Source of the DNA: Candidatus Thorarchaeota archaeon
GTDB taxonomy: Archaea; Asgardarchaeota; Thorarchaeia; Thorarchaeales; Thorarchaeaceae
DNA length: 64,000 nt
Assembly: GCA_963726195.1 (NCBI GenBank)
Contig: CAVSBO010000004.1
Location: 32,001 to 96,000 of the forward strand
Reading direction: 5' to 3'
Shown here: positions 31,201 through 63,614 of the stretch, in pieces
Layout of the letters: every line of letters begins with the position of its first letter
Numbering within the stretch: the first letter of the stretch is position 1
Position numbers and translations under genes: made by a program
Notes under the pieces: model-generated
Database searches by the model: none
Told to the model about the DNA's origin: nothing
Seen by the model: only the letters and a program-made list of their open reading frames with translations

Positions 31201-33050
31201 TCCCTGAATCCGAGTCATCGTCTTCAAATGTGATTCCATCGAAAAACAGATTTCCCTGTGTCTTCTTGGCCGCCTGAATTCTGGTCAGAAACCTCTGAAG
31301 CTGTCTGGTCTTGTGGGGAGAATTGTGCATAAACGTATATATGTCTCCGACCTCGATTTCGGAATCCTTCAGAGTTCTGATGGACTGCCGCAGTTCCTTG
31401 TCTGCGAGATTCTCTGCAGCTATAACCTTGCAGTGCACTTGACACTCCGCGGACATGGTCTTCTCAAGAACTTCTTCTTTGCCTTAATCTCCTCCACAAG
31501 TTTGCCAATGGACTTGGGCGAACGAGGAATGCTCTTCTGACATTCAATGACAAAAGTGTCTTGGTCCTTCCAAGCTAGCACGTCGATTTCCCGATTCCCT
31601 GTTTTCTTGTCACGATATCTCCATTTGACATGATAGCCTTCTTCTGCCATGCATGTTGCCACGAAAAGCTCGATGAATACTGCGGAGAGCTCATCACTGT
31701 CGTCCATTATGAATGTGGCTAGTTCGGATCTTGTCAATGAGCCGTCAAGTGACTTGCTCTTTTGCTCGATTTGACCCTTCAAATAGCGCTCGAATTGTGG
31801 TCGTGCCACCGAAATCTCATGGACTTCCACTAGGTCGCCTAAGCGTTGTATTGTCTCCTCAGCGATTTTCATCATGGACCTGGCTCCGCCTGTGAAGTTG
31901 TTGCATGAATCTAGGTGCACAATCCAACCTGAAGCATCGCTCCAAACCGTGCCGTAACATGGCAGTAAAATAGCATAGCTGATGTCGGCAGCCTTAGGGT
32001 TTCCGATGGTCGGATGCATTATTCGTCGAACTTGAACGGGACCTTGCGCTCTGCCGTCCGCATACATCCTTGCCAGTCCCTCGAGAAGGAAGGCAAATGC
32101 CGGGTCCCAGGATACAGAACAGAATCACCGCCATCCAGAACCTGTATGTTGTACCAAAGAAACTCAGCATCAAGCTGGCTCTCTGTCGAATCTCTGGTAG
32201 GCACACGGTATGGTTCAAGGATGGGGGCCAGAATGCTAGCATTCGGAGTTGGCATCTCCACTATCACATCTGTAGTGGCAAGTCCGAGGCATCCTTCAGC
32301 TTCAGATATTCGATTACGCACTACCTTGTCGTAAAGTGCGCCAAAATCTCCCCAGTCCTTGCATGCCAATATGTCTGTGCAAGGGTTGCAAGTCACGACA
32401 GCGTCGGCTACGTGTTGCCAGAGATATGAAAGGCCCTCTCTATAGCCTTCAAACATGCGTTCAAAGAGCCCGCCCCTCTTGAATGCGGCTGTTCGTTTTC
32501 CAAATCCAAAATCAGTGATGCCTGATTTAAGCGGCATCTTCAGCGTTCTCTGCTGAGTCAGGCTCGCCAAGAACTCCATCGAGCAGAAAGCCAATCCCCG
32601 TTCTTTTGACACATCCTTCGCTCGGCCACGAAAGACCGGAATGCTTTCTCGGATACCCCTGAGCGCGGATAAGTAAGGCCCAAAGCCTCGTTTATTTGCA
32701 TCAAAGAACTCGTCGCAATTCTGCGCCTTAAGAGATTCTGTGACTCTCGAATCCAAACCACGCAGAACTTGTGCCAATTCCGAATCGCTTGGCACGAGCC
32801 GCGCGGCACACCCAACGAACACGGCCCTCTTAGTCATCAAGTCCCGCTCCAGATAGAAAGGCGGTCCGTCTTCAAACACCCACTTCTGTTTGTCAACTAC
32901 CGTGTTAAGTAGGAGTTTCAATCCAAGAAGCAACTTGCCAGATTGACCATGTACGAGACTCTGCGCGTTGAGAAAATCGAGAAACGGCTCATAGGCTGCA
33001 AGACTCAAGCGATGACGAGCCTCCAAACAGCTGGCCCAAAGTGTAAGCAT
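31196..33050 (-). CDS. Large hypothetical protein with C-terminal PD-(D/E)XK (Mrr-like) nuclease domain, two frameshifts
   Basis: Three chained ORFs; [13 protein letters not shown]...REIDVLAWK...FVIECQ. Confidence 0.65.
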
Positions 33051-52551: not shown

Positions 52552-53091
52552 TTAGAGACGGGATGCCTTGGCCAGAGCATCATCTGCTTCTTCATATTCA
52601 AACAGTCTCTTATGAGCTCGTGCAAGCATCTCCCAAACTTCCTTGTCCTTGCTTTTCATTTCCAGGTACTTTCTGCAGTAGAGCTTGACTCCTTCCCAGT
52701 CCGACAGCTCCTCGGAACAACGGGCAGCATAATACAGGGCCCTTTTGTGATTCATCTTGGGCCCCATGAAATCTTTGAATACTGCCAGAGCTTCTTGCCA
52801 TTGTTTGTTCTCAAACAGCTGCATTCCCTGTCTGAACTGAATCTCCATGTCTTCGTAAGCAGGAATCTTGGCTGAATAGGAGCTTATCGCAAGGTAAGAC
52901 GAACAGCAGAGAAGAATGACCGAGCTCGTTATTGCAGCTCCGAGAATAAGACCAGGCGAGATAGGCCATGCGAGCCAGCTTGCGACCCATGCAAGCACGG
53001 CTCCCACCACGAAAAATGGGATGGCAAGGAGGGCGATGGCCTTGATATGACTGAACCCGACTATTTCGCCTCTCTGAGCTTTGGATGTCAT
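52552..53091 (-). CDS. Two-TM protein with C-terminal TPR repeats
   Basis: Two hydrophobic helices then TPR-pattern helices. Confidence 0.7.
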   Translation of the reverse strand: MTSKAQRGEIVGFSHIKAIALLAIPFFVVGAVLAWVASWLAWPISPGLILGAAITSSVILLCCSSYLAISSYSAKIPAYEDMEIQFRQGMQLFENKQWQEALAVFKDFMGPKMNHKRALYYAARCSEELSDWEGVKLYCRKYLEMKSKDKEVWEMLARAHKRLFEYEEADDALAKASRL

Positions 53092-53152
53092 CTGTGTATC
53101 TTCACCTCGATGCCCGTGCGCTCTGGTCATGCTTGTTACGTTGTAGATTCTA

Positions 53153-53803
53153 CTATTCCGGTCCACGCAAGTCCTTATCGAGTCTCTTGTTTGGGTCCGT
53201 CCTGCGTTCGTATTCGTCCTGCAGCTTCCTGGCTTCCAATCTGGCCTTTGAGACATGAATCCATTGCTCTACCAGCGGCCCCAGCTCGGGGTCCAACTTC
53301 ACAGCAAGCTCTCCGTAGGCGATGGCATGCTCGTCGTCTTCCTCAATGAAGTGAGCATTCGCCTTGTTGTAGAAAGCTTCTGCGTAGTCGGGTTTCAATG
53401 CAACAGCTCTCGTATAGAATTCGATGGCCTTCTGGCCTTCACCAAGTCTGGATAGGCAGTTCCCCAAGTTGTTCCACGCTTCAGCGTCGTCTGGTCTAAT
53501 CTCGACTGCCTTTTGGTAGCACTCCTTTGCACCCTTGAAGTCTTTCAACTGATACAGGACAGTTGCCTTGTTGAACCAACTCTCGAAAATCATGTTGTCA
53601 ATTGCTAGTGCTTCGTCGTATGCCTTGACGGCATCATCGTATCTATCACATTCTGCAAGGGCGACGCCCAAGTTGTACCATGCTTCAACCGAATGAGGAT
53701 CGTCGTTCACGAAGGCTTCGAGAGTATCAACTGCCTCCTCGTATCTGCCTGCCTTCATCATGGCGACGGCGCGACCTATGGGACTCGCCTTTACTTTCTT
53801 CAA
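53153..53803 (-). CDS. Tetratricopeptide repeat protein
   Basis: AWYNLG, SWFNKA, AWNNLG, AFYNKA repeats. Confidence 0.9.
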   Translation of the reverse strand: MKKVKASPIGRAVAMMKAGRYEEAVDTLEAFVNDDPHSVEAWYNLGVALAECDRYDDAVKAYDEALAIDNMIFESWFNKATVLYQLKDFKGAKECYQKAVEIRPDDAEAWNNLGNCLSRLGEGQKAIEFYTRAVALKPDYAEAFYNKANAHFIEEDDEHAIAYGELAVKLDPELGPLVEQWIHVSKARLEARKLQDEYERRTDPNKRLDKDLRGPE

Positions 53804-56404: not shown

Positions 56405-58444
56405 CTAGACACACCACGCAATCGATGTGGGCGAAGCCTCACATGTCCTATCATACGCGCAAACACGCCTAGGATGATAATGCATGAGCCATAGCACAAT
56501 ATTGAGTGCCAGTGTCCCATCATAATACGAATGGTATTGATGCGTCATGCCGTAATTGTCGAATTCGAAATTGGAACCTGAGATAACGATCCTGCCACCA
56601 CCAGCACCCTGAAGGCATGCCAACACCGGGTCGATGCCGTAGCTTCCCAGAGTGGTTGCGCCGCCGGGGACTTTGATGGGTGCTCCAAGGAAGTCGAAGT
56701 CGTAAACTCCCACGGTCGTGGGATGGGCGGTGACTTGAGTAACAAGAACAGGACTGTCGCCAGAACCAACTCTGCCGTTTGTCAGAGAGAAGTTGGTCCA
56801 GCTGAGGAAATGATTGAGAGAGTGAACATCCAGACTGTCGTTTGATAGAGCAACAACGAGTATTCCACCACCGCTATTGAAGTATTGATGATAGGCTGTA
56901 ATCTCACTGTCTGAAAAGGGCACAGAGAAAATAGATGGGTTGAATGCGTCGCTCTCGTTTAAGTCCCAGACGCATGGGTCCAGCAAGAGGACTGCGTCAA
57001 ACGTGGAGAGAAGACTGTACGTGATTTCCGAGCTGTTGCGCAACTCCGTCACTGAGAACGAGTTCGTTGTGAGCTTCTTGTAGAACTCTCTGAACTGACC
57101 ATAGATTGTGTCAATGGACCAAGTCGTGTGGCTGATGTCGAAGGCTACCCTTGCAGTAGCGTCTGGAGCTGTGAACCGAATTGTGACGCGCGATGTGCCG
57201 CCGGTGTTAGATACGAATGTGATGTTGCCGCTGTAGGATGTGATACCGCTAGCTGGCACAACCACCTTCAGAGGAACAATGCCAACTTGGTTGATAGAAA
57301 CAGGCGAAGACACATTGAATATGCCTGGGGTGCTGCTGGTGATCTTAATGTCGAATGTCGCCTGCGATGACGTGAAGAGCTGCAGATTGAATTCATAGGT
57401 ATCTCCATGGAAGAGGCTCTCGAAATCAATGGGAAGTTCAGCAGGGCTTACGTATGAAATGTTAGGCAAAAGCCCTGTGCTCGAACTACCGGCTATCACT
57501 TGGATTGAATTCGTGAGATCTAATGCGCCAGCGCCAACAACATACTCTGGATAAGGCAGCGTGTCAGCACCTTTCAACAGGGCAGTCATGATTGAACCGG
57601 GTGTGAATGGCAAACTGTTCTTGATGCAGTAGGCGACCAGCTCCGCTGCCGCGGCAGACACACGTGGAGATGAAAAGGATGTTCCATAGTAGGTGGTTGT
57701 CGTCGTCTGAACGTAGCCAGCGGCGGCGATGTCTGGTTTCATATAGCTTGACGCAGTTGGGCCTGTACTTGAGAAGTAGGCCGGGGACCCATTATCATCG
57801 AGAGCCGCGACCGCTAGGCAGTCCATGAATACACCTGGCGACGAGACGCTCGTGCCGGCTCTTCCGCTGTCACCCTCGTTGCCCGCGGCTGCCACAACGA
57901 CGACTCCCTTTGAAAACGCATACTGTATCGCCTTCTCAGTTGGATCATCATAAGTTGGCGTCGAACCAAGGCTCAGATTGATGACACTGCAGTTCTGTTC
58001 GACTGCCCAGTAGATAGCGGCGATTAGTCCCGGTGTGGTGGCTTGTCCATTCGAATCAAGGATTCTTCCATTGACTATCACACAGTTTTGGCTTTCTTGA
58101 GCGATTGTCATAGCCACGAGTGTACCGTGTGGCGTGCCACCGGGCCTGGAATCAGTTGTGGTAAGGTCGCTGGAGGTGTAGCCGTAATCGACCGAAATGA
58201 AGCTCTGCTGCGAGGCGATTCTGCCCTGAAGAACGCCAGAGCTATCCATCCCCGAATCCAAGACTGCAACTCTGACTTGCCCAGTCCCTGACGAGAAAGG
58301 CCCGAGCTGCAAGAGAAGCATTACGCCGGAAGACATCACAATGAGAAGAATCACAAACACTGCCAGGAGCTTGATAGCGGTTGACGAGGACCGTTTGGGG
58401 CCGCTATCTCTGATTTCCCAATAGTTCATCATTGGATTCACCAT
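56405..58444 (-). CDS. Membrane-anchored S8 subtilase with Ig-like and GldG/DUF4350-type C-terminal domains (Site-1-protease-like architecture)
   Basis: N-terminal TM; catalytic motifs VLDSG, HGTLVA, GTSFSSP; oxyanion AAGN; C-domain RVAFDISH...GGRIVISGS. Confidence 0.85.
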   Translation of the reverse strand: MVNPMMNYWEIRDSGPKRSSSTAIKLLAVFVILLIVMSSGVMLLLQLGPFSSGTGQVRVAVLDSGMDSSGVLQGRIASQQSFISVDYGYTSSDLTTTDSRPGGTPHGTLVAMTIAQESQNCVIVNGRILDSNGQATTPGLIAAIYWAVEQNCSVINLSLGSTPTYDDPTEKAIQYAFSKGVVVVAAAGNEGDSGRAGTSVSSPGVFMDCLAVAALDDNGSPAYFSSTGPTASSYMKPDIAAAGYVQTTTTTYYGTSFSSPRVSAAAAELVAYCIKNSLPFTPGSIMTALLKGADTLPYPEYVVGAGALDLTNSIQVIAGSSSTGLLPNISYVSPAELPIDFESLFHGDTYEFNLQLFTSSQATFDIKITSSTPGIFNVSSPVSINQVGIVPLKVVVPASGITSYSGNITFVSNTGGTSRVTIRFTAPDATARVAFDISHTTWSIDTIYGQFREFYKKLTTNSFSVTELRNSSEITYSLLSTFDAVLLLDPCVWDLNESDAFNPSIFSVPFSDSEITAYHQYFNSGGGILVVALSNDSLDVHSLNHFLSWTNFSLTNGRVGSGDSPVLVTQVTAHPTTVGVYDFDFLGAPIKVPGGATTLGSYGIDPVLACLQGAGGGRIVISGSNFEFDNYGMTHQYHSYYDGTLALNIVLWLMHYHPRRVCAYDRTCEASPTSIAWCV

Positions 58445-58641
58445 CGAGTCACAGCTCGGGACCTGCCAAACCAATCAATCCATTGTACATGAAGCTGTTG
58501 TTCTGATACAATGCGGTCCACAGTGGAGCGATTGCATTTGAAAGGACCAACCGCAAGCGCGTTCGGAAGCCGTCGACCTGCTCAAAAGAAGCTTCAAAAG
58601 GTGGCCAGAGGAGGCCGAGTACGTTTTGGACTCCACAGAAC

Positions 58642-61620
58642 ATGTTACAAGTTGATTTATCTGGAAAAGGGCAGTCGAAGTGCTCAATCAACGGGGAACT
58701 CATCGTGCCAGAACAAGACGCCATCACAACTAGCCTAGGAGCTGAAGGTTTTCATTCGATACCTCTCGACGACCTGCTGCAAGTGCTCTCTGTTGATCCC
58801 AAGATTGGACTGTCGGACGAAGAGGTGAAGTCTCGCCTTCAGCAATATGGCCCCAACTCCATTCCGAAAGTCAAAGGGTCCTTCTGGAAAGTCTACTTGG
58901 CACCAATCCTGAACTGGCTGATTAACATCTATATCGTGAGCTCTGTTGCTCTTCTCGCAATCTCGTTGCTCTTTCCGTCTCCAGAGAACGGGCTCTTACA
59001 AGCCACAATCTGGATTGCTGTGGTTGCCGTGAATTGCATTGTGGCCATCTTTCAGCAGTATAGGGCCCAAAAGAAGCTTGAAGCGCTCGAGAAGCTGGCG
59101 GCAGGAGAAACAAGGGTCATACGTGACGGTTCAGAGATGAAAATAGACCCTGCCCGCATCGTGCCCGGTGATGTGATTAAACTCGAGCAGGGCGACAAGA
59201 TACCTGCTGATGCTAGGATAGTCTCATGCTCCAACCTCACGACCAATGAGGCTTCATTGACTGGTGAGAGTGTTCCCAGCACGAAGGACTACGAGGCAGT
59301 CTTGCCAGCGGCTGCTCCTATCACGGATATGACCAATACGATATTTCTGGGTACCTACGTTGCCACAGGCAGGGCACTTGCCGTCGTGACAAAGACCGGG
59401 GCCGCCACTGAGATTGGGAAGATCCAGAGAGAGCTGGAGGCGCTCAACACCGGGGATATACCTCTCCGGAAGAAAGTGAACCGACTCGCCAAGTATCTCG
59501 GCATAACGGCTCTCCTCTTGCTGGCCGTGTCCATCCTATGGCAGGTCTTCCTTCTACCGCTCATCACGAACACTCCCATCGTCATCACTCCTGAGGCTAT
59601 CGCTGCTAACCTGGAACTTGCCATACCCAGAGCCTTGACGATCATGCCCATGAATATCCCGTTGCTCACCACAATTGTGCTTCTTACTGGTGTTCTTGTC
59701 ATGGCGCAACATGGAGTAATCATCCGGGACCTCTCCGCTGTAGAGAGTCTGGGTCGGGTCAGTGTCATATGCTCAGACAAGACTGGCACATTGACGCGGA
59801 ACCAAATGACTGTCAGGTTTTGCTGGGACACGCAGAATCTCTATTCTGTAACTGGAGATGGATACGAGCCCTCAGGTCAGATATACCGACTCAAGGATTC
59901 TTCGGGAATCATGTCGTTCAATTACGAACATGAAAGCAAGCCGACTGACGTGAGAACTTCGAAGAGCCTGTACAAGCTAATGATATGCGGGGCGATAGAC
60001 AACGATTCTGAGATAGTGAAGAAGGAGATTCCCAGCCAAGGTACCGCTTGGACCGCTATCGGAGATCCGACTGATGCTGCCCTGCTTGCGCTCTTCAGAA
60101 AGACCAACCTCGATGAAGAAGATGTCAGAAAGAAGTACAAGGTGGTCAAGGAGTTTCCGTTCGAGTCTGAGCTGAAACGTGTATCAAAGATATGTCATGA
60201 CGGAAAGAAATTTGTCGCCTTTGTGAAGGGAGCAAGCGAAGTCATACTGCCAAGATGCACCACAATCGATGGAAGCGATCGCCCCTCAAAGCTCACGACC
60301 GATACTGCAGGCAAGATTCAGGGATATGTCGATAGCTTTGCAGCGATGGGATATCGTGTCATATCACTTGCTTACCATGAGATGGACTCCTTCCCCGAGT
60401 CTGAAGACGCAAGAGACCTGACCGAGAAGAACTTGGCATACCTCGGCTTTGCGTGCATTGTCGACCCGCCCCGTGATGGCGCAAAAGAAGCCGTAGAGAG
60501 TTGTCACAGTGCGGGGATTAACGTTGTGATGATTACTGGAGACGCCTCCGCCACTGCACAGACGATTGCTCGCGATTTGGGAATCTCGTCCAAGAACTCA
60601 CTAGTCGCAGAGGGTGCTTCGATTGAGGAACTCAGCGATAGCGATTTTGCAAAGGTGAATGTGTTCGCGCGCGTCAATCCTCAACACAAGCAAGTCATTG
60701 TAGAGCGGTACCAGAACCAAGGCAAAGTGGTCGCGATGACCGGAGACGGTGTCAACGATGCGCTTGCACTTGCGATGTGTGATGCAGGTATTGCCATGGG
60801 TATCACCGGTACGGATGTGGCCAAAGAAGCGGCAGACCTCGTGATAACCGACGACAGCTTCACGTCAATAGTTGAAGGTGTGCGTCAAGGAAGGGGCCTG
60901 TTCAACAAGATCCGAATGATGGTCTACTTCTACTTGGCTATCAACCTGTCTGAGAGCATTCTCTACTTTGGAGGGCTCTTCCTTCTGCCTGCGTCAATGG
61001 CAGTGCTGACATCGTGGCAGAGTCTGTACCTGATAGTCACCACTCATTCGTTTCCGGGATTGGCTCTCGTATTTGACAGAACTTCGCGTACGGCAATGGA
61101 CGAGAAACCAAGGGACAGTGAGGCAATTATCACTCATCCACTTGCCAAGTTTATGGCCCTCAACATAGTGCTGATGGCAATCGGCGCAGGGCTCGCCTAT
61201 GCATTGACCGTAACCGGGTGGTTCGGAATCGAGGGTCTCTTTCCCGAAAACGTAGGCGGTATCTACTCAGCTTCAATTGATTCCGCATTCAAGGCGAGGG
61301 TCATGATGTTGAGCGTGATGCTGCTGACCGAAAGCACGTTGGTACTCATAGTCAGACGCGTGAACATGTCTCTGAGGCGGAGTCTTAGGGAACCAGGGAC
61401 GATGATATTTGTTCCCTTCCTCGCAATCATCTATGCCGCACATTTGCTTCTGATGTACGTCCCACAGTCCCAAGGGTTATTGTCAACTGTAGGGCTTCAC
61501 TTTTACTTCCTGCCTTTGACGCTCTATGACTGGGTCATCTGCTTCTTGCTAGCTATGCCGGCAATAGTGGGTATGGAAGTGTACAAGTGGAGACTTAGAC
61601 GACAGGGCAAGACCATCTAG
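58642..61620 (+). CDS. P-type ATPase, type II (SERCA/PMR1-like scaffold) with non-canonical transport-site residues
   Basis: GLSDEEV, TGES, DKTGTLT, GDPTD, FESELKR, KGA, DPPR, TGD, GDGVNDA; 10 TM segments. Confidence 0.92.
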   Translation: MLQVDLSGKGQSKCSINGELIVPEQDAITTSLGAEGFHSIPLDDLLQVLSVDPKIGLSDEEVKSRLQQYGPNSIPKVKGSFWKVYLAPILNWLINIYIVSSVALLAISLLFPSPENGLLQATIWIAVVAVNCIVAIFQQYRAQKKLEALEKLAAGETRVIRDGSEMKIDPARIVPGDVIKLEQGDKIPADARIVSCSNLTTNEASLTGESVPSTKDYEAVLPAAAPITDMTNTIFLGTYVATGRALAVVTKTGAATEIGKIQRELEALNTGDIPLRKKVNRLAKYLGITALLLLAVSILWQVFLLPLITNTPIVITPEAIAANLELAIPRALTIMPMNIPLLTTIVLLTGVLVMAQHGVIIRDLSAVESLGRVSVICSDKTGTLTRNQMTVRFCWDTQNLYSVTGDGYEPSGQIYRLKDSSGIMSFNYEHESKPTDVRTSKSLYKLMICGAIDNDSEIVKKEIPSQGTAWTAIGDPTDAALLALFRKTNLDEEDVRKKYKVVKEFPFESELKRVSKICHDGKKFVAFVKGASEVILPRCTTIDGSDRPSKLTTDTAGKIQGYVDSFAAMGYRVISLAYHEMDSFPESEDARDLTEKNLAYLGFACIVDPPRDGAKEAVESCHSAGINVVMITGDASATAQTIARDLGISSKNSLVAEGASIEELSDSDFAKVNVFARVNPQHKQVIVERYQNQGKVVAMTGDGVNDALALAMCDAGIAMGITGTDVAKEAADLVITDDSFTSIVEGVRQGRGLFNKIRMMVYFYLAINLSESILYFGGLFLLPASMAVLTSWQSLYLIVTTHSFPGLALVFDRTSRTAMDEKPRDSEAIITHPLAKFMALNIVLMAIGAGLAYALTVTGWFGIEGLFPENVGGIYSASIDSAFKARVMMLSVMLLTESTLVLIVRRVNMSLRRSLREPGTMIFVPFLAIIYAAHLLLMYVPQSQGLLSTVGLHFYFLPLTLYDWVICFLLAMPAIVGMEVYKWRLRRQGKTI

Positions 61621-61649
61621 CACCAGAAGCCCATTGGGGGCCCTAGCAA

Positions 61650-63614
61650 ATGCTGCAACTGCCGTTCTTCAGTCCGTTGATTTGGGGCCTAATGCTCGCG
61701 GCCGTCTTCCTAGTTACGGCTGTAGGTTCCATCATTGAGCTGACCATGAGAGCGAGAACCCGTCAAGTGCAGAGACTGGACGCGATGCTCCTCACTCGGA
61801 TGACCATTCCTGTTCTGGAGCTGGCAAATGGTCTTGACAAGAAGGCCCTCGACAAGTCGAGTACATTGGCTGTTGTTAAACGCGCAAAGAACGCAATGCT
61901 GAGCTTTGCCGGGAGCTCAGTCGTTTCAGTGCCACTGATGATGCAGAGACTTCGCTCGCAGCTCGCTGACAGCAGCGCAATCCATGTGGCAGATGAATCC
62001 AAGCGTTGGGAACTCTCAGATGATCAGATTGCTTCGTTAGTAGAAACAATCACAACGGCTGAGGGCATGGATGTTGTTCTGACGAAGGATGGAGATTTCA
62101 TTCTAGTCACTGAATTCAAGGGACGCATGAGGGATGCGCTCAATCTTGGCGGGCGCTTGGATATCTCGTCAGAGGCCCAACGCATGAGAGTGGATCCCGG
62201 AGAGCTCAGAAAACTTGTACAGACCTGGGGTTGGGGACTGATTGAGGGGTCTGACGGTTCACTGGTTTCAACACGCTGGCTGAAGTCGACTCTTGAACGC
62301 GGTGTCGATAAGCTGGGCTATCTGGACCCGAAGGCTGAGGCAGCACGATTGCACATTCCTGTGGGAGCCATCACGGAAACAATCAAACAGCTGAAGTGGA
62401 CACTCATCGAGACACAGGACGGGAGACAGGTGCCAAGCCACCTGTTGGAGCAGCACCTTGTCGATAGCATTCGAAAGGAAGGGTTCATTGATCTCGACGC
62501 GGAATCGAAGGAGCTCAAGGTAGGTGTTCCGGACCTACTAAGACTGCTGCGCACGGCTGGCATGCGCATAGTCTCCACGAAAGACCATTCGGTTGCGACT
62601 GTCGAGTACGTGCGAGACCGAGTCAGAGACGACATGCAGCTCTCCGGCTGGGTGTCACCCGATCAAGAGGCAGAGGTCCTCGGGGTCGACAAGAACGTCA
62701 TTGACGATATCTTGAAGGGCCAGCCCGGTTTGAGAAGAGGAAGAGATGGAAGGTATGTTTCGCTAGAATCCCTTCGACGATGGCTTCTTCAGGAAGCTGA
62801 AGAAGCAGGTGTGATTCGAGTGAACGACGCGGAGACGCAATGGGGTCTGTCTCCTCTCGAACTCCAGTTACTTGTAAGAGAGTCGGGCTTGACCACGGTC
62901 GTCACGCGCTCCGGTGACTACCTATCGACCGCGTTTGTCCGCCGAAAAGTACAATCTGATCTCAGCAAAGGTGTTCGTGTGGAGCCTTCCGTTCTCGCCA
63001 GTGGTCTAGGGATCGACTCAAGAACGGCTGAAGGAATCATGGCACGGGTGAAGGGAGAAGGGCTAGTCACAGAAGATGGCTCACTAATTCCTGCGTCTCT
63101 CTTGCGAAAGAATCTTCAGCAGGCATTTGCGTCCACGGGGATAGTTGACCTGGTGAGGGAGGGCAGAACTCAGAGACTCGACGTTTCGGATCTCAGAAGG
63201 ATAGTAGTAGGCTTGGGAATAGAGACGCTGGAGACCGCAACAAACAAGCTTGTTGACGTATCGTGGATTATCAATGGCATGAGACAGGCTCTCAAACTGA
63301 AAGGAGTCTTTTACCTTGCTAGACTAGCGAGCACTCTCGAACTTGATTACGTGACAGTGGCGGAGGTTGTTGAAAAGAAGCTTGAAGCCAATGAGATGAT
63401 TGTAGACCCAGCGGGTGTGGTTGTGAATTCTGAATGGGTTGCGGATCTTCGCCAGTATTCCTCAGTTACAGACATGATACCGGTTACACAGTTATCGACC
63501 GAGATGGGCCTTAGCCCCGAGTCGGTGCTTCATTTGCTCAAGAGGTACGTGGGCGGTCTCTACAATTCGCGGACCGACTCATTCACCCCTCGACTGCAAC
63601 AAACAGGTACGTAA
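61650..63614 (+). CDS. Membrane-anchored tandem winged-helix repeat protein, UFL1/DDRGK1-like
   Basis: N-terminal TM helix, then about 11 repeats of ~53 aa (helix, G.h.h...A..h.h....h..hh, T.DG.h wing). Confidence 0.7.
   Translation: MLQLPFFSPLIWGLMLAAVFLVTAVGSIIELTMRARTRQVQRLDAMLLTRMTIPVLELANGLDKKALDKSSTLAVVKRAKNAMLSFAGSSVVSVPLMMQRLRSQLADSSAIHVADESKRWELSDDQIASLVETITTAEGMDVVLTKDGDFILVTEFKGRMRDALNLGGRLDISSEAQRMRVDPGELRKLVQTWGWGLIEGSDGSLVSTRWLKSTLERGVDKLGYLDPKAEAARLHIPVGAITETIKQLKWTLIETQDGRQVPSHLLEQHLVDSIRKEGFIDLDAESKELKVGVPDLLRLLRTAGMRIVSTKDHSVATVEYVRDRVRDDMQLSGWVSPDQEAEVLGVDKNVIDDILKGQPGLRRGRDGRYVSLESLRRWLLQEAEEAGVIRVNDAETQWGLSPLELQLLVRESGLTTVVTRSGDYLSTAFVRRKVQSDLSKGVRVEPSVLASGLGIDSRTAEGIMARVKGEGLVTEDGSLIPASLLRKNLQQAFASTGIVDLVREGRTQRLDVSDLRRIVVGLGIETLETATNKLVDVSWIINGMRQALKLKGVFYLARLASTLELDYVTVAEVVEKKLEANEMIVDPAGVVVNSEWVADLRQYSSVTDMIPVTQLSTEMGLSPESVLHLLKRYVGGLYNSRTDSFTPRLQQTGT

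Follow-up and report, generated by a model that had tools for sequence, protein, structure and literature searches.

UFL1 is an unusual E3 ligase in that it lacks a catalytic domain, and little is understood of its origin. In its partner DDRGK1 (UFBP1), the DDRGK motif lies in the wing of winged helix WH1', where residue R265 contacts both UFC1 and CDK5RAP3. Together the two proteins (PF09743 and PF09756; structures 8b9x, 8c0d, 8ohd, 8qfc and 9gy4) form an N-terminal membrane anchor, a long helix, and a continuous cytoplasmic array of winged helices (WH). The features that make this complex a ligase have been delineated: the UFC1-binding helix alpha-1 of UFL1; the DDRGK loop; the UFL1 C-terminal domain; and CDK5RAP3 (PMC10937380). 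In the human complex, contacts to the 60S subunit are made by six of the seven winged helices, and UFL1 WH1, WH4 and WH5 contact eL13 and uL1 (PMC10937380). Here we describe a gene of a Candidatus Thorarchaeota archaeon (assembly GCA_963726195.1) that encodes a membrane-anchored winged-helix array related to UFL1. It lies in a 64,000-nucleotide window, the whole stretch analysed, which covers positions 32,001 to 96,000 of contig CAVSBO010000004.1.

UFL1 and DDRGK1 have been traced to Asgard archaea, before UFM1, and a UFM1-independent ancestral role has been proposed for them (Picchianti 2023, PMC10183829). An Asgard class of multidomain fusions with DDRGK- and UFL1-type parts has also been reported (Liu et al. 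2021, bioRxiv 10.1101/2020.10.19.343400). Asgard homologues and domain fusions are, then, already published; a literature search found no description of a family with a transmembrane (TM) anchor and eleven winged-helix units.

A distant member of the UFL1 family

The gene is an intact open reading frame (ORF) of 654 codons (61650..63614, forward strand, stop codon included). Its product matches a single Pfam family, PF09743 (E3_UFM1_ligase), at 26.1 bits against a curated cut-off of 23.2 (E 8e-6); an NCBIfam scan of the protein gave no match. PF09743 is likewise the one family common to all ten aligned members of this protein family, each matching at E <= 1 (best 2.3e-9). Scanned separately, several members fall below 23.2 bits and one shows no match; one further member reaches 46.3 bits (E 5.6e-12). 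Generic winged helix-turn-helix (wHTH) families of Pfam appear among the members sporadically and below threshold.

Comparison with known structures points the same way. The family profile, searched against all Protein Data Bank (PDB) sequences, has a single significant match, at E 1e-5: 8b9x, an engineered DDRGK1-UFL1 chimera. The next match has an E-value of about 1. Foldseek ranks UFL1 chains and the chimera first to fifth (8qfc_B, 8ohd_A, 9gy4_E, 8b9x_A and 8b9x_B; E 9.8e-13 to 5.3e-9), followed by RPC82 (2.3e-4), SelB (3e-4) and ESCRT-II (0.03); alignments to full-length UFL1 chains span 581-642 columns. Superposition on 8b9x_A with VIA-align gives Z 12.2 over 222 residues, at a root-mean-square deviation of 6.6 A, and isolated winged helices give Z 7-8.4.

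The first-pass annotation of this DNA, made from the letters alone, had given a human UFL1 string and set it in register with part of the protein. The string is correct: it corresponds to residues 26-89 of human UFL1 (P0094). The archaeal segment it was set against (nucleotides 62010-62195) is exactly residues 121-182, and HMMER and hhalign both reproduce the proposed register (E 1e-5 against 8b9x; 32% identity over 63 columns, E 0.0015). Shared features include the GGR..I motif, a DG wing and a VD motif, and the UFL1-DDRGK1 scaffold is also the best structural match in the PDB.

Could the resemblance be no deeper than the fold? A generic tandem winged-helix repeat might be convergent with UFL1, or merely share its WH fold. 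Several comparisons are compatible with that view. Pairwise BLASTP against human UFL1 is not significant (E 0.75). The hhalign comparison with UFL1 yields only E ~1e-3, against a shallow alignment made of mammals only (Neff, the effective number of sequences, 1.0; all 120 UFL1 matches listed are mammalian). The family profile, run against 1.84 billion proteins, does not reach eukaryotic UFL1 at E <= 1e-3. Against it stand the PF09743 match above the curated cut-off, the UFL1 chimera as the only PDB sequence match, and bridging proteins from another Asgard family (described below) that match both sides: hhalign probability 92% to the Thorarchaeota family, and 74 bits to PF09743. Rows of winged helices that dock onto RNA or large complexes are also known from SelB C-terminal WH1-4 and Pol III RPC82/RPC62. 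These show no sequence-profile match to the protein, and their Foldseek E-values are weaker than those of UFL1 by 4-8 orders of magnitude. UFL1 thus comes first by sequence (PF09743 and the PDB profile search) and by structure, well above SelB, RPC82, Vps22/25 and PCI proteins, whereas the first-pass annotation would have taken its claim as refuted had such generic repeats ranked level with UFL1 or higher. We regard a generic repeat as very improbable. Judged by these comparisons, the protein is a true UFL1-family winged-helix array and a distant relative of UFL1.

Anchor, topology and eleven winged helices

The first-pass annotation had also described an N-terminal TM helix followed by about eleven tandem winged-helix units, and hydropathy, an AlphaFold2 model and profile self-comparison all bear this out. 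The protein has a single hydrophobic segment (19-residue Kyte-Doolittle mean peaking at 2.3), at residues ~7-30 (61668..61739, forward strand, as are all parts of the gene given below), within a predicted helix of residues 9-49. The cytoplasmic part of this long helix, residues 31-49 (61740..61796), is a basic juxtamembrane stretch that doubles as helix 1 of WH1 in the model. It contains arginines R34, R36, R38 and R42, with R34 and R36 invariant in the family, and most full-length members show the same succession of TM helix and basic residues. By the positive-inside rule, the basic flank of a TM helix lies on the cytoplasmic side. The TM helix and its basic flank therefore argue for an N-out/C-in topology, in which only about six N-terminal residues would lie outside and the remainder would be cytoplasmic. 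By this rule, the protein has a DDRGK1-like N-terminal anchor.

The AlphaFold2 model, built on a 10-sequence alignment, has a mean predicted local distance difference test (pLDDT) score of 88. The long helix (9-49) projects beyond the membrane, and eleven winged-helix units follow. Each spans 54-59 residues and starts with a long helix 1; a short strand, two further helices (2 and 3) and a wing of two strands follow. Self-BLAST of the 654-residue protein does not detect internal repeats; profile self-comparison reveals them at each multiple of roughly 56 residues (offsets near 57, 114, 169 and 224), and its E-values go down to 2.6e-28.

WH1 (residues 35-93; 61752..61928) is placed by the model, and is the topological counterpart of DDRGK1 WH1'. 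WH2-WH3 (residues 94-207; 61929..62270) contain the match to PF09743 and the family-profile match to 8b9x. They correspond to the N-terminal end of UFL1, namely its partial winged helix and WH1; their 5' part corresponds to the partial winged helix (pWH') of DDRGK1 in 8b9x. WH3 is the most conserved unit of all, with the lowest column entropy (1.39); residues K157, G168, R169, E175, Q177, W193 and W195 in its region are at least 95% conserved. WH7 and WH6 come next in conservation. They belong to the remaining eight winged helices, WH4-WH11 (residues 208-647; 62271..63590), defined by the model and the repeat statistics. The chain ends directly after the eleventh winged helix in a low-confidence tail (residues 648-654; 63591..63611; pLDDT <50 for 651-654), and the model contains no counterpart of the UFL1 C-terminal domain.

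Parts of the ligase that are missing

The Thorarchaeota protein differs from UFL1-DDRGK1 in more than its single polypeptide (versus two) and its eleven winged helices (versus seven). Helix alpha-1, the DDRGK motif and the UFL1 C-terminal domain are all absent, no UFM1-interacting motif (UFIM) can be demonstrated, and there is no CDK5RAP3 partner.

The UFC1-binding helix alpha-1 of human UFL1 comprises residues 1-26, including I8, F15 and Q19. The UFL1-like stretch of the archaeal protein begins at the equivalent of L27, and a free UFC1-binding helix is not present: in the AlphaFold2 model, residues 94-121 just before it are part of a continuous chain and make up helix 1, strand 1 and helix 2 of WH2. 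The families PF25041 and PF23659, which human UFL1 carries in its C-terminal part, find no match in the protein at E <= 10.

The conjugation machinery is not in evidence either. The first-pass annotation had suggested looking for homologues of UFM1 and its associated proteins in the genome. Pfam models for Ufm1 (PF03671), UFC1 (PF08694), CDK5RAP3 (PF05600) and UfSP (PF07910) found none in the host assembly (2.92 Mb, 19 contigs, 88.9% complete). One ThiF-type E1 is encoded, as in most prokaryotes. No UBC-type E2 was found. As a positive control, the same E2 search (PF00179) is positive in 108 of 125 non-Thorarchaeota Asgard genomes, versus one weak match among 26 genomes of the host's family. 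This scarcity agrees with a report that Thorarchaeota seem to lack ubiquitin (Hatano 2022, PMC9192718). The DDRGK model finds three weak matches in the host genome (<=18 bits), in small ORFs, and similar ones in unrelated control genomes. The Pfam Ufm1 model finds weak, sub-threshold matches inside large ORFs in six of 201 Asgard genomes. With default settings, the whole-genome search for PF09743 failed to find the winged-helix gene itself, so single negatives of this kind must be read with care; that for the E2 enzyme is backed by its positive control.

An unsplit DDRGK1-UFL1?

The first-pass annotation proposed that the protein resembles an unsplit DDRGK1-UFL1, and this deserves a close look. 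One version of the idea makes the protein an ancestral, undivided scaffold whose task is co-translational quality control, with the large ribosomal subunit clamped at the Sec translocon. The overall layout agrees with it: the order of TM anchor, long helix, winged helix, and UFL1-like units mirrors DDRGK1 followed by UFL1. So does the profile alignment, in which residues 95-187 of the family profile align with positions 76-168 of 8b9x, across the artificial junction of the chimera: residues 95-121 fall on the DDRGK1 partial winged helix, and residues 122-187 on UFL1 from L27. Where the C-terminal partial winged helix of DDRGK1 is completed by the partial winged helix of UFL1, the Thorarchaeota protein has one intact winged helix at the aligned place, in a register that is not unique.

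How strongly is that register favoured? PF09743 positions 16-119 align with residues 117-216, and among sliding windows only the one containing units 2-3 matches the Pfam model. The top hhalign alignment to UFL1 residues 1-420 is collinear as well, with residues 122-184 on UFL1 27-91. The collinear register provides the best Pfam stretch in seven of eleven members scanned. However, three of the eleven, including the highest scorer, prefer other registers, and hhalign over the full length puts two shifted registers slightly above the collinear one. VIA-align places the chimera 8b9x on residues 208-432 (units 4-7). When the eleven units were compared individually with UFL1 and a bridging Asgard protein by hhalign, an underpowered test, no collinear diagonal emerged; most units best match UFL1 residues ~120-180 (E 2e-4 to 0.1). 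Collinearity with DDRGK1 plus UFL1 is plausible, with the repeat register favoured but not unique.

Of DDRGK1 itself the sequence shows little trace. PF09756 (DDRGK) does not match the full protein at E <= 10, nor residues 1-152, a stretch that gives no family match when scanned by itself, and among ten family members it matches one (E 0.8). The Pfam check suggested in the first pass thus gave a split answer: the UFL1 model matches, and the DDRGK model does not. No DDRGK motif was found in the WH1 wing, which reads ..SFAGSSVV.. (family consensus NA.LS..G..V.S), with no acidic-basic loop. WH1 is therefore comparable to DDRGK1 WH1' in topology, but not in motif or Pfam match.

The collinear register would put WH3, WH6 and WH7 on UFL1 WH1, WH4 and WH5, the units with eL13 and uL1 contacts (PMC10937380), and the host genome encodes both ribosomal proteins. 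Other facts fit poorly with ribosome quality control by an ancestral clamp. The UFL1 C-terminal domain, which occupies tRNA sites in the human complex, is absent. The gene is found in one Asgard family only and was lost there at least four times (see below), which would be odd for a core function. Soluble proteins of another Asgard family (DDRGK 56 bits, UFL1 74 bits) are far closer to the eukaryotic profiles. In short, the layout and the alignment through the chimera junction lend the unsplit DDRGK1-UFL1 proposal partial support; a unique register, a DDRGK match or motif, and a UFL1 C-terminal domain are wanting. We consider an ancestral translocon clamp unlikely.

Relatives in other Asgard archaea

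A search of 301 Asgard genomes finds PF09743-type proteins in 132. The strongest matches, at 60-74 bits, come from ~790-residue proteins of another Asgard family, here called f9, where 62 of 68 genomes have them; their loci include L028:436-2799 (reverse strand), L037:811-3180 (forward strand), and twelve similar ones (L029-L041). Each protein has Cys-rich Zn-ribbons at its start and a Vps28 domain at its end; the PF09743 match in between is immediately preceded by a match to DDRGK of up to 56 bits. Three PCI-type winged helices also are present. The f9 proteins are soluble, with no TM helix, and are the strongest archaeal relatives of UFL1 and DDRGK1 in this analysis. They are probably the fusions that Liu et al. 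(2021) reported, and probably also the UFL1/DDRGK1 homologues that Picchianti et al. (2023; PMC10183829) traced to Asgard archaea.

The f9 and Thorarchaeota families are related (hhalign E 8e-7, the 92% probability cited above), and share a single chain, UFL1-type tandem winged helices, and restriction to Asgard archaea. The differences are equally clear. The Thorarchaeota protein is TM-anchored and lacks the Cys-rich N-terminus and any VPS28 match, whereas the f9 family has E2 enzymes and higher PF09743 and PF09756 scores. Since the f9 proteins are much stronger single-chain DDRGK-plus-UFL1 candidates, the Thorarchaeota protein is a side branch and not "the" precursor, and it is probably not the direct ancestor of the ligase.

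A second set of relatives resembles receptors. These proteins consist of a signal peptide, an ectodomain of the PKD, Big or NosD type, one TM helix, and a cytoplasmic UFL1-like array; examples are P0029 (2867 residues), P0032 (919), P0039 (1208) and P0045 (701). They match the C-terminal units of the Thorarchaeota family at E 1e-16 to 1e-37. Like the Thorarchaeota protein, they pass directly from the TM helix to the UFL1-type array; unlike it, they have large ectodomains (compared with ~6 residues) and fewer winged helices. In some other relatives the array is joined to TPR repeats. The 654-residue protein is the minimal version, with anchor and array only. The recurrence of the array in receptor-like tails and Vps28 fusions suggests that it may be a general, reusable membrane-proximal adaptor module.

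Two partial matches to the family profile lie away from the ATPase locus described below: G063:C20:34630-35328, in a 773-residue ORF, and G116:C65:10413-11177, in a 634-residue ORF. Both genomes belong to the host's family, one of them to its own genus. The two ORFs probably represent further architectures with the same array.

A probable docking scaffold at the membrane

What might such a protein do? We favour the view that it is a UFL1-family scaffold, non-catalytic and tethered to the membrane, that works without ubiquitin-like conjugation, and hold this to be probable. The single N-terminal helix would anchor the protein in the cytoplasmic membrane, N-out/C-in. The long helix would project from the membrane, and the eleven winged helices would form an elongated cytoplasmic array. 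This array would probably be a passive surface on which a large cytoplasmic partner docks and is kept at the membrane.

Homology to the human complex suggests one partner only, the ribosome; its large subunit is the best single guess, although a guess that we would expect to be wrong considerably more often than right. A more specific proposal is that the protein has kept the layout of DDRGK1 plus UFL1 from before their fission, and tethers large ribosomal subunits to the membrane without a ubiquitin-like modifier. This we think quite unlikely. If true, modifier-free ribosome tethering would be the primordial job of a scaffold that was later split and coupled to UFM1 in eukaryotes. A complex prediction of residues 35-654 with uL1 from the same genomes (6-row alignment, no control runs) returned a score of 0.00, which speaks neither for nor against.

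Several points weigh against a non-conjugating scaffold, or against the ribosome as its partner. A cryptic Ufm1-like modifier could escape sequence profiles, and the genome is 88.9% complete; indeed, structure-based Ufm1 homologues have been reported from nine Asgard clades (PMC12962969). The residues of human UFL1 that contact eL13 are not conserved in identity: N78 aligns with D171, and Q83 with A176. The mildly acidic character of the protein, with an isoelectric point (pI) of 5.9, is neutral to slightly unfavourable for a surface that would bind mainly rRNA. Finally, winged helices can also bind nucleic acids.

This last point leads to another explanation: the protein might tether nucleic acid (chromosome, plasmid or mRNA) to the membrane through its winged helices, which are typical DNA and RNA binders. 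Single units superpose on Z-alpha (Z 8.3-8.4), on the mRNA-binding domains of SelB (Z 7.6-8.1), and on many wHTH repressors, and some family members show weak Pfam matches to HTH families. However, those matches are scattered and none reaches its cut-off; the protein as a whole is acidic, and the net charge of most units is zero or negative; and the specific, multi-domain matches point to UFL1, a scaffold that binds proteins and ribosomes. A nucleic-acid tether is therefore improbable.

The family offers a natural test of the idea of Picchianti et al. (2023), being an anchored UFL1-type scaffold whose lineage shows no E2 enzymes. The binding partner of its cytoplasmic domain would reveal the scaffold's job before UFMylation. 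Its reach is bounded: this is a side branch, confined to one archaeal family, and dispensable there.

Distribution, loss and the adjacent ATPase

The exact architecture is rare: a search of the 1.84 billion representative proteins gives 38 matches, of which about 17 are full length. The full-length relatives belong to Thorarchaeota-type Asgard metagenome-assembled genomes; their length of ~650 residues is conserved, and pairwise identity among 23 full-length sequences is 28-93%. Among the 301 Asgard genomes the gene is restricted to the host's own family, where 22 of 76 genomes have it; one weak match lies elsewhere.

In every gene-bearing locus the gene stands between a P-type ATPase gene and panB. 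In the window, it follows the ATPase gene after a 29-bp spacer (61621..61649, forward strand), and panB lies 72 bp 3' of it. Some 10 nt 5' of the ATG there is a G-rich stretch (GGGGG) that resembles a Shine-Dalgarno site; no AT-rich promoter element was seen in the spacer. Co-transcription with the ATPase gene may be inferred from this arrangement. In genomes without the gene, panB directly follows the ATPase gene; these include members of two genera in which others keep the gene. A search of the empty ATPase-panB junctions for gene remnants returned nothing below E 0.03.

An orthologue of the ATPase is present in 75 of 80 genomes of the family. The ATPase was placed in a quick maximum-likelihood tree with a paralogue as root. 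The gene-bearing lineages are basal and scattered in it, and its well-supported branches require no fewer than four changes. That the gene was inserted several times independently at the very same site is implausible, which argues for ancestral presence and repeated loss. The gene thus appears to be ancestral in the family, to have been lost cleanly at least four times, and to be accessory and dispensable.

This pattern also bears on a different role, in which the protein would be a subunit dedicated to the neighbouring SERCA-like pump, for its regulation or as a scaffold. The short spacer, shared strand, lack of an obvious promoter between the genes, and adjacency in every gene-bearing locus would all suit such a subunit. 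However, the ATPase orthologue persists in all genera that lack the winged-helix gene, so the pump is independent of that gene and the adjacency reflects inherited synteny. A functional tie to the ATPase was rejected on this pattern of presence and absence; a pump subunit is extremely improbable.

Neighbouring genes

The ATPase itself (58642-61620, forward strand) is a P2-type, SERCA/PMCA-like cation pump of 992 residues with intact P-type domains. Its TM4 reads ..IMPMNIP.. at the position of PEGLP in Ca pumps, and its TM6 reads ..LIVTTHSFP... These motifs suggest a rebuilt ion site.

Divergent to the ATPase gene lies a gene for a 689-residue S8 subtilase (56405-58474, reverse strand), syntenic in all related loci examined. 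The N-terminal part of the subtilase includes a hydrophobic segment, and its long C-terminal extension has many N-x-S/T sites. Further upstream, a 234-residue ORF (52552-53256, reverse strand) has a borderline ANAPC3/TPR match, at 27.3 bits against a cut-off of 27.2.

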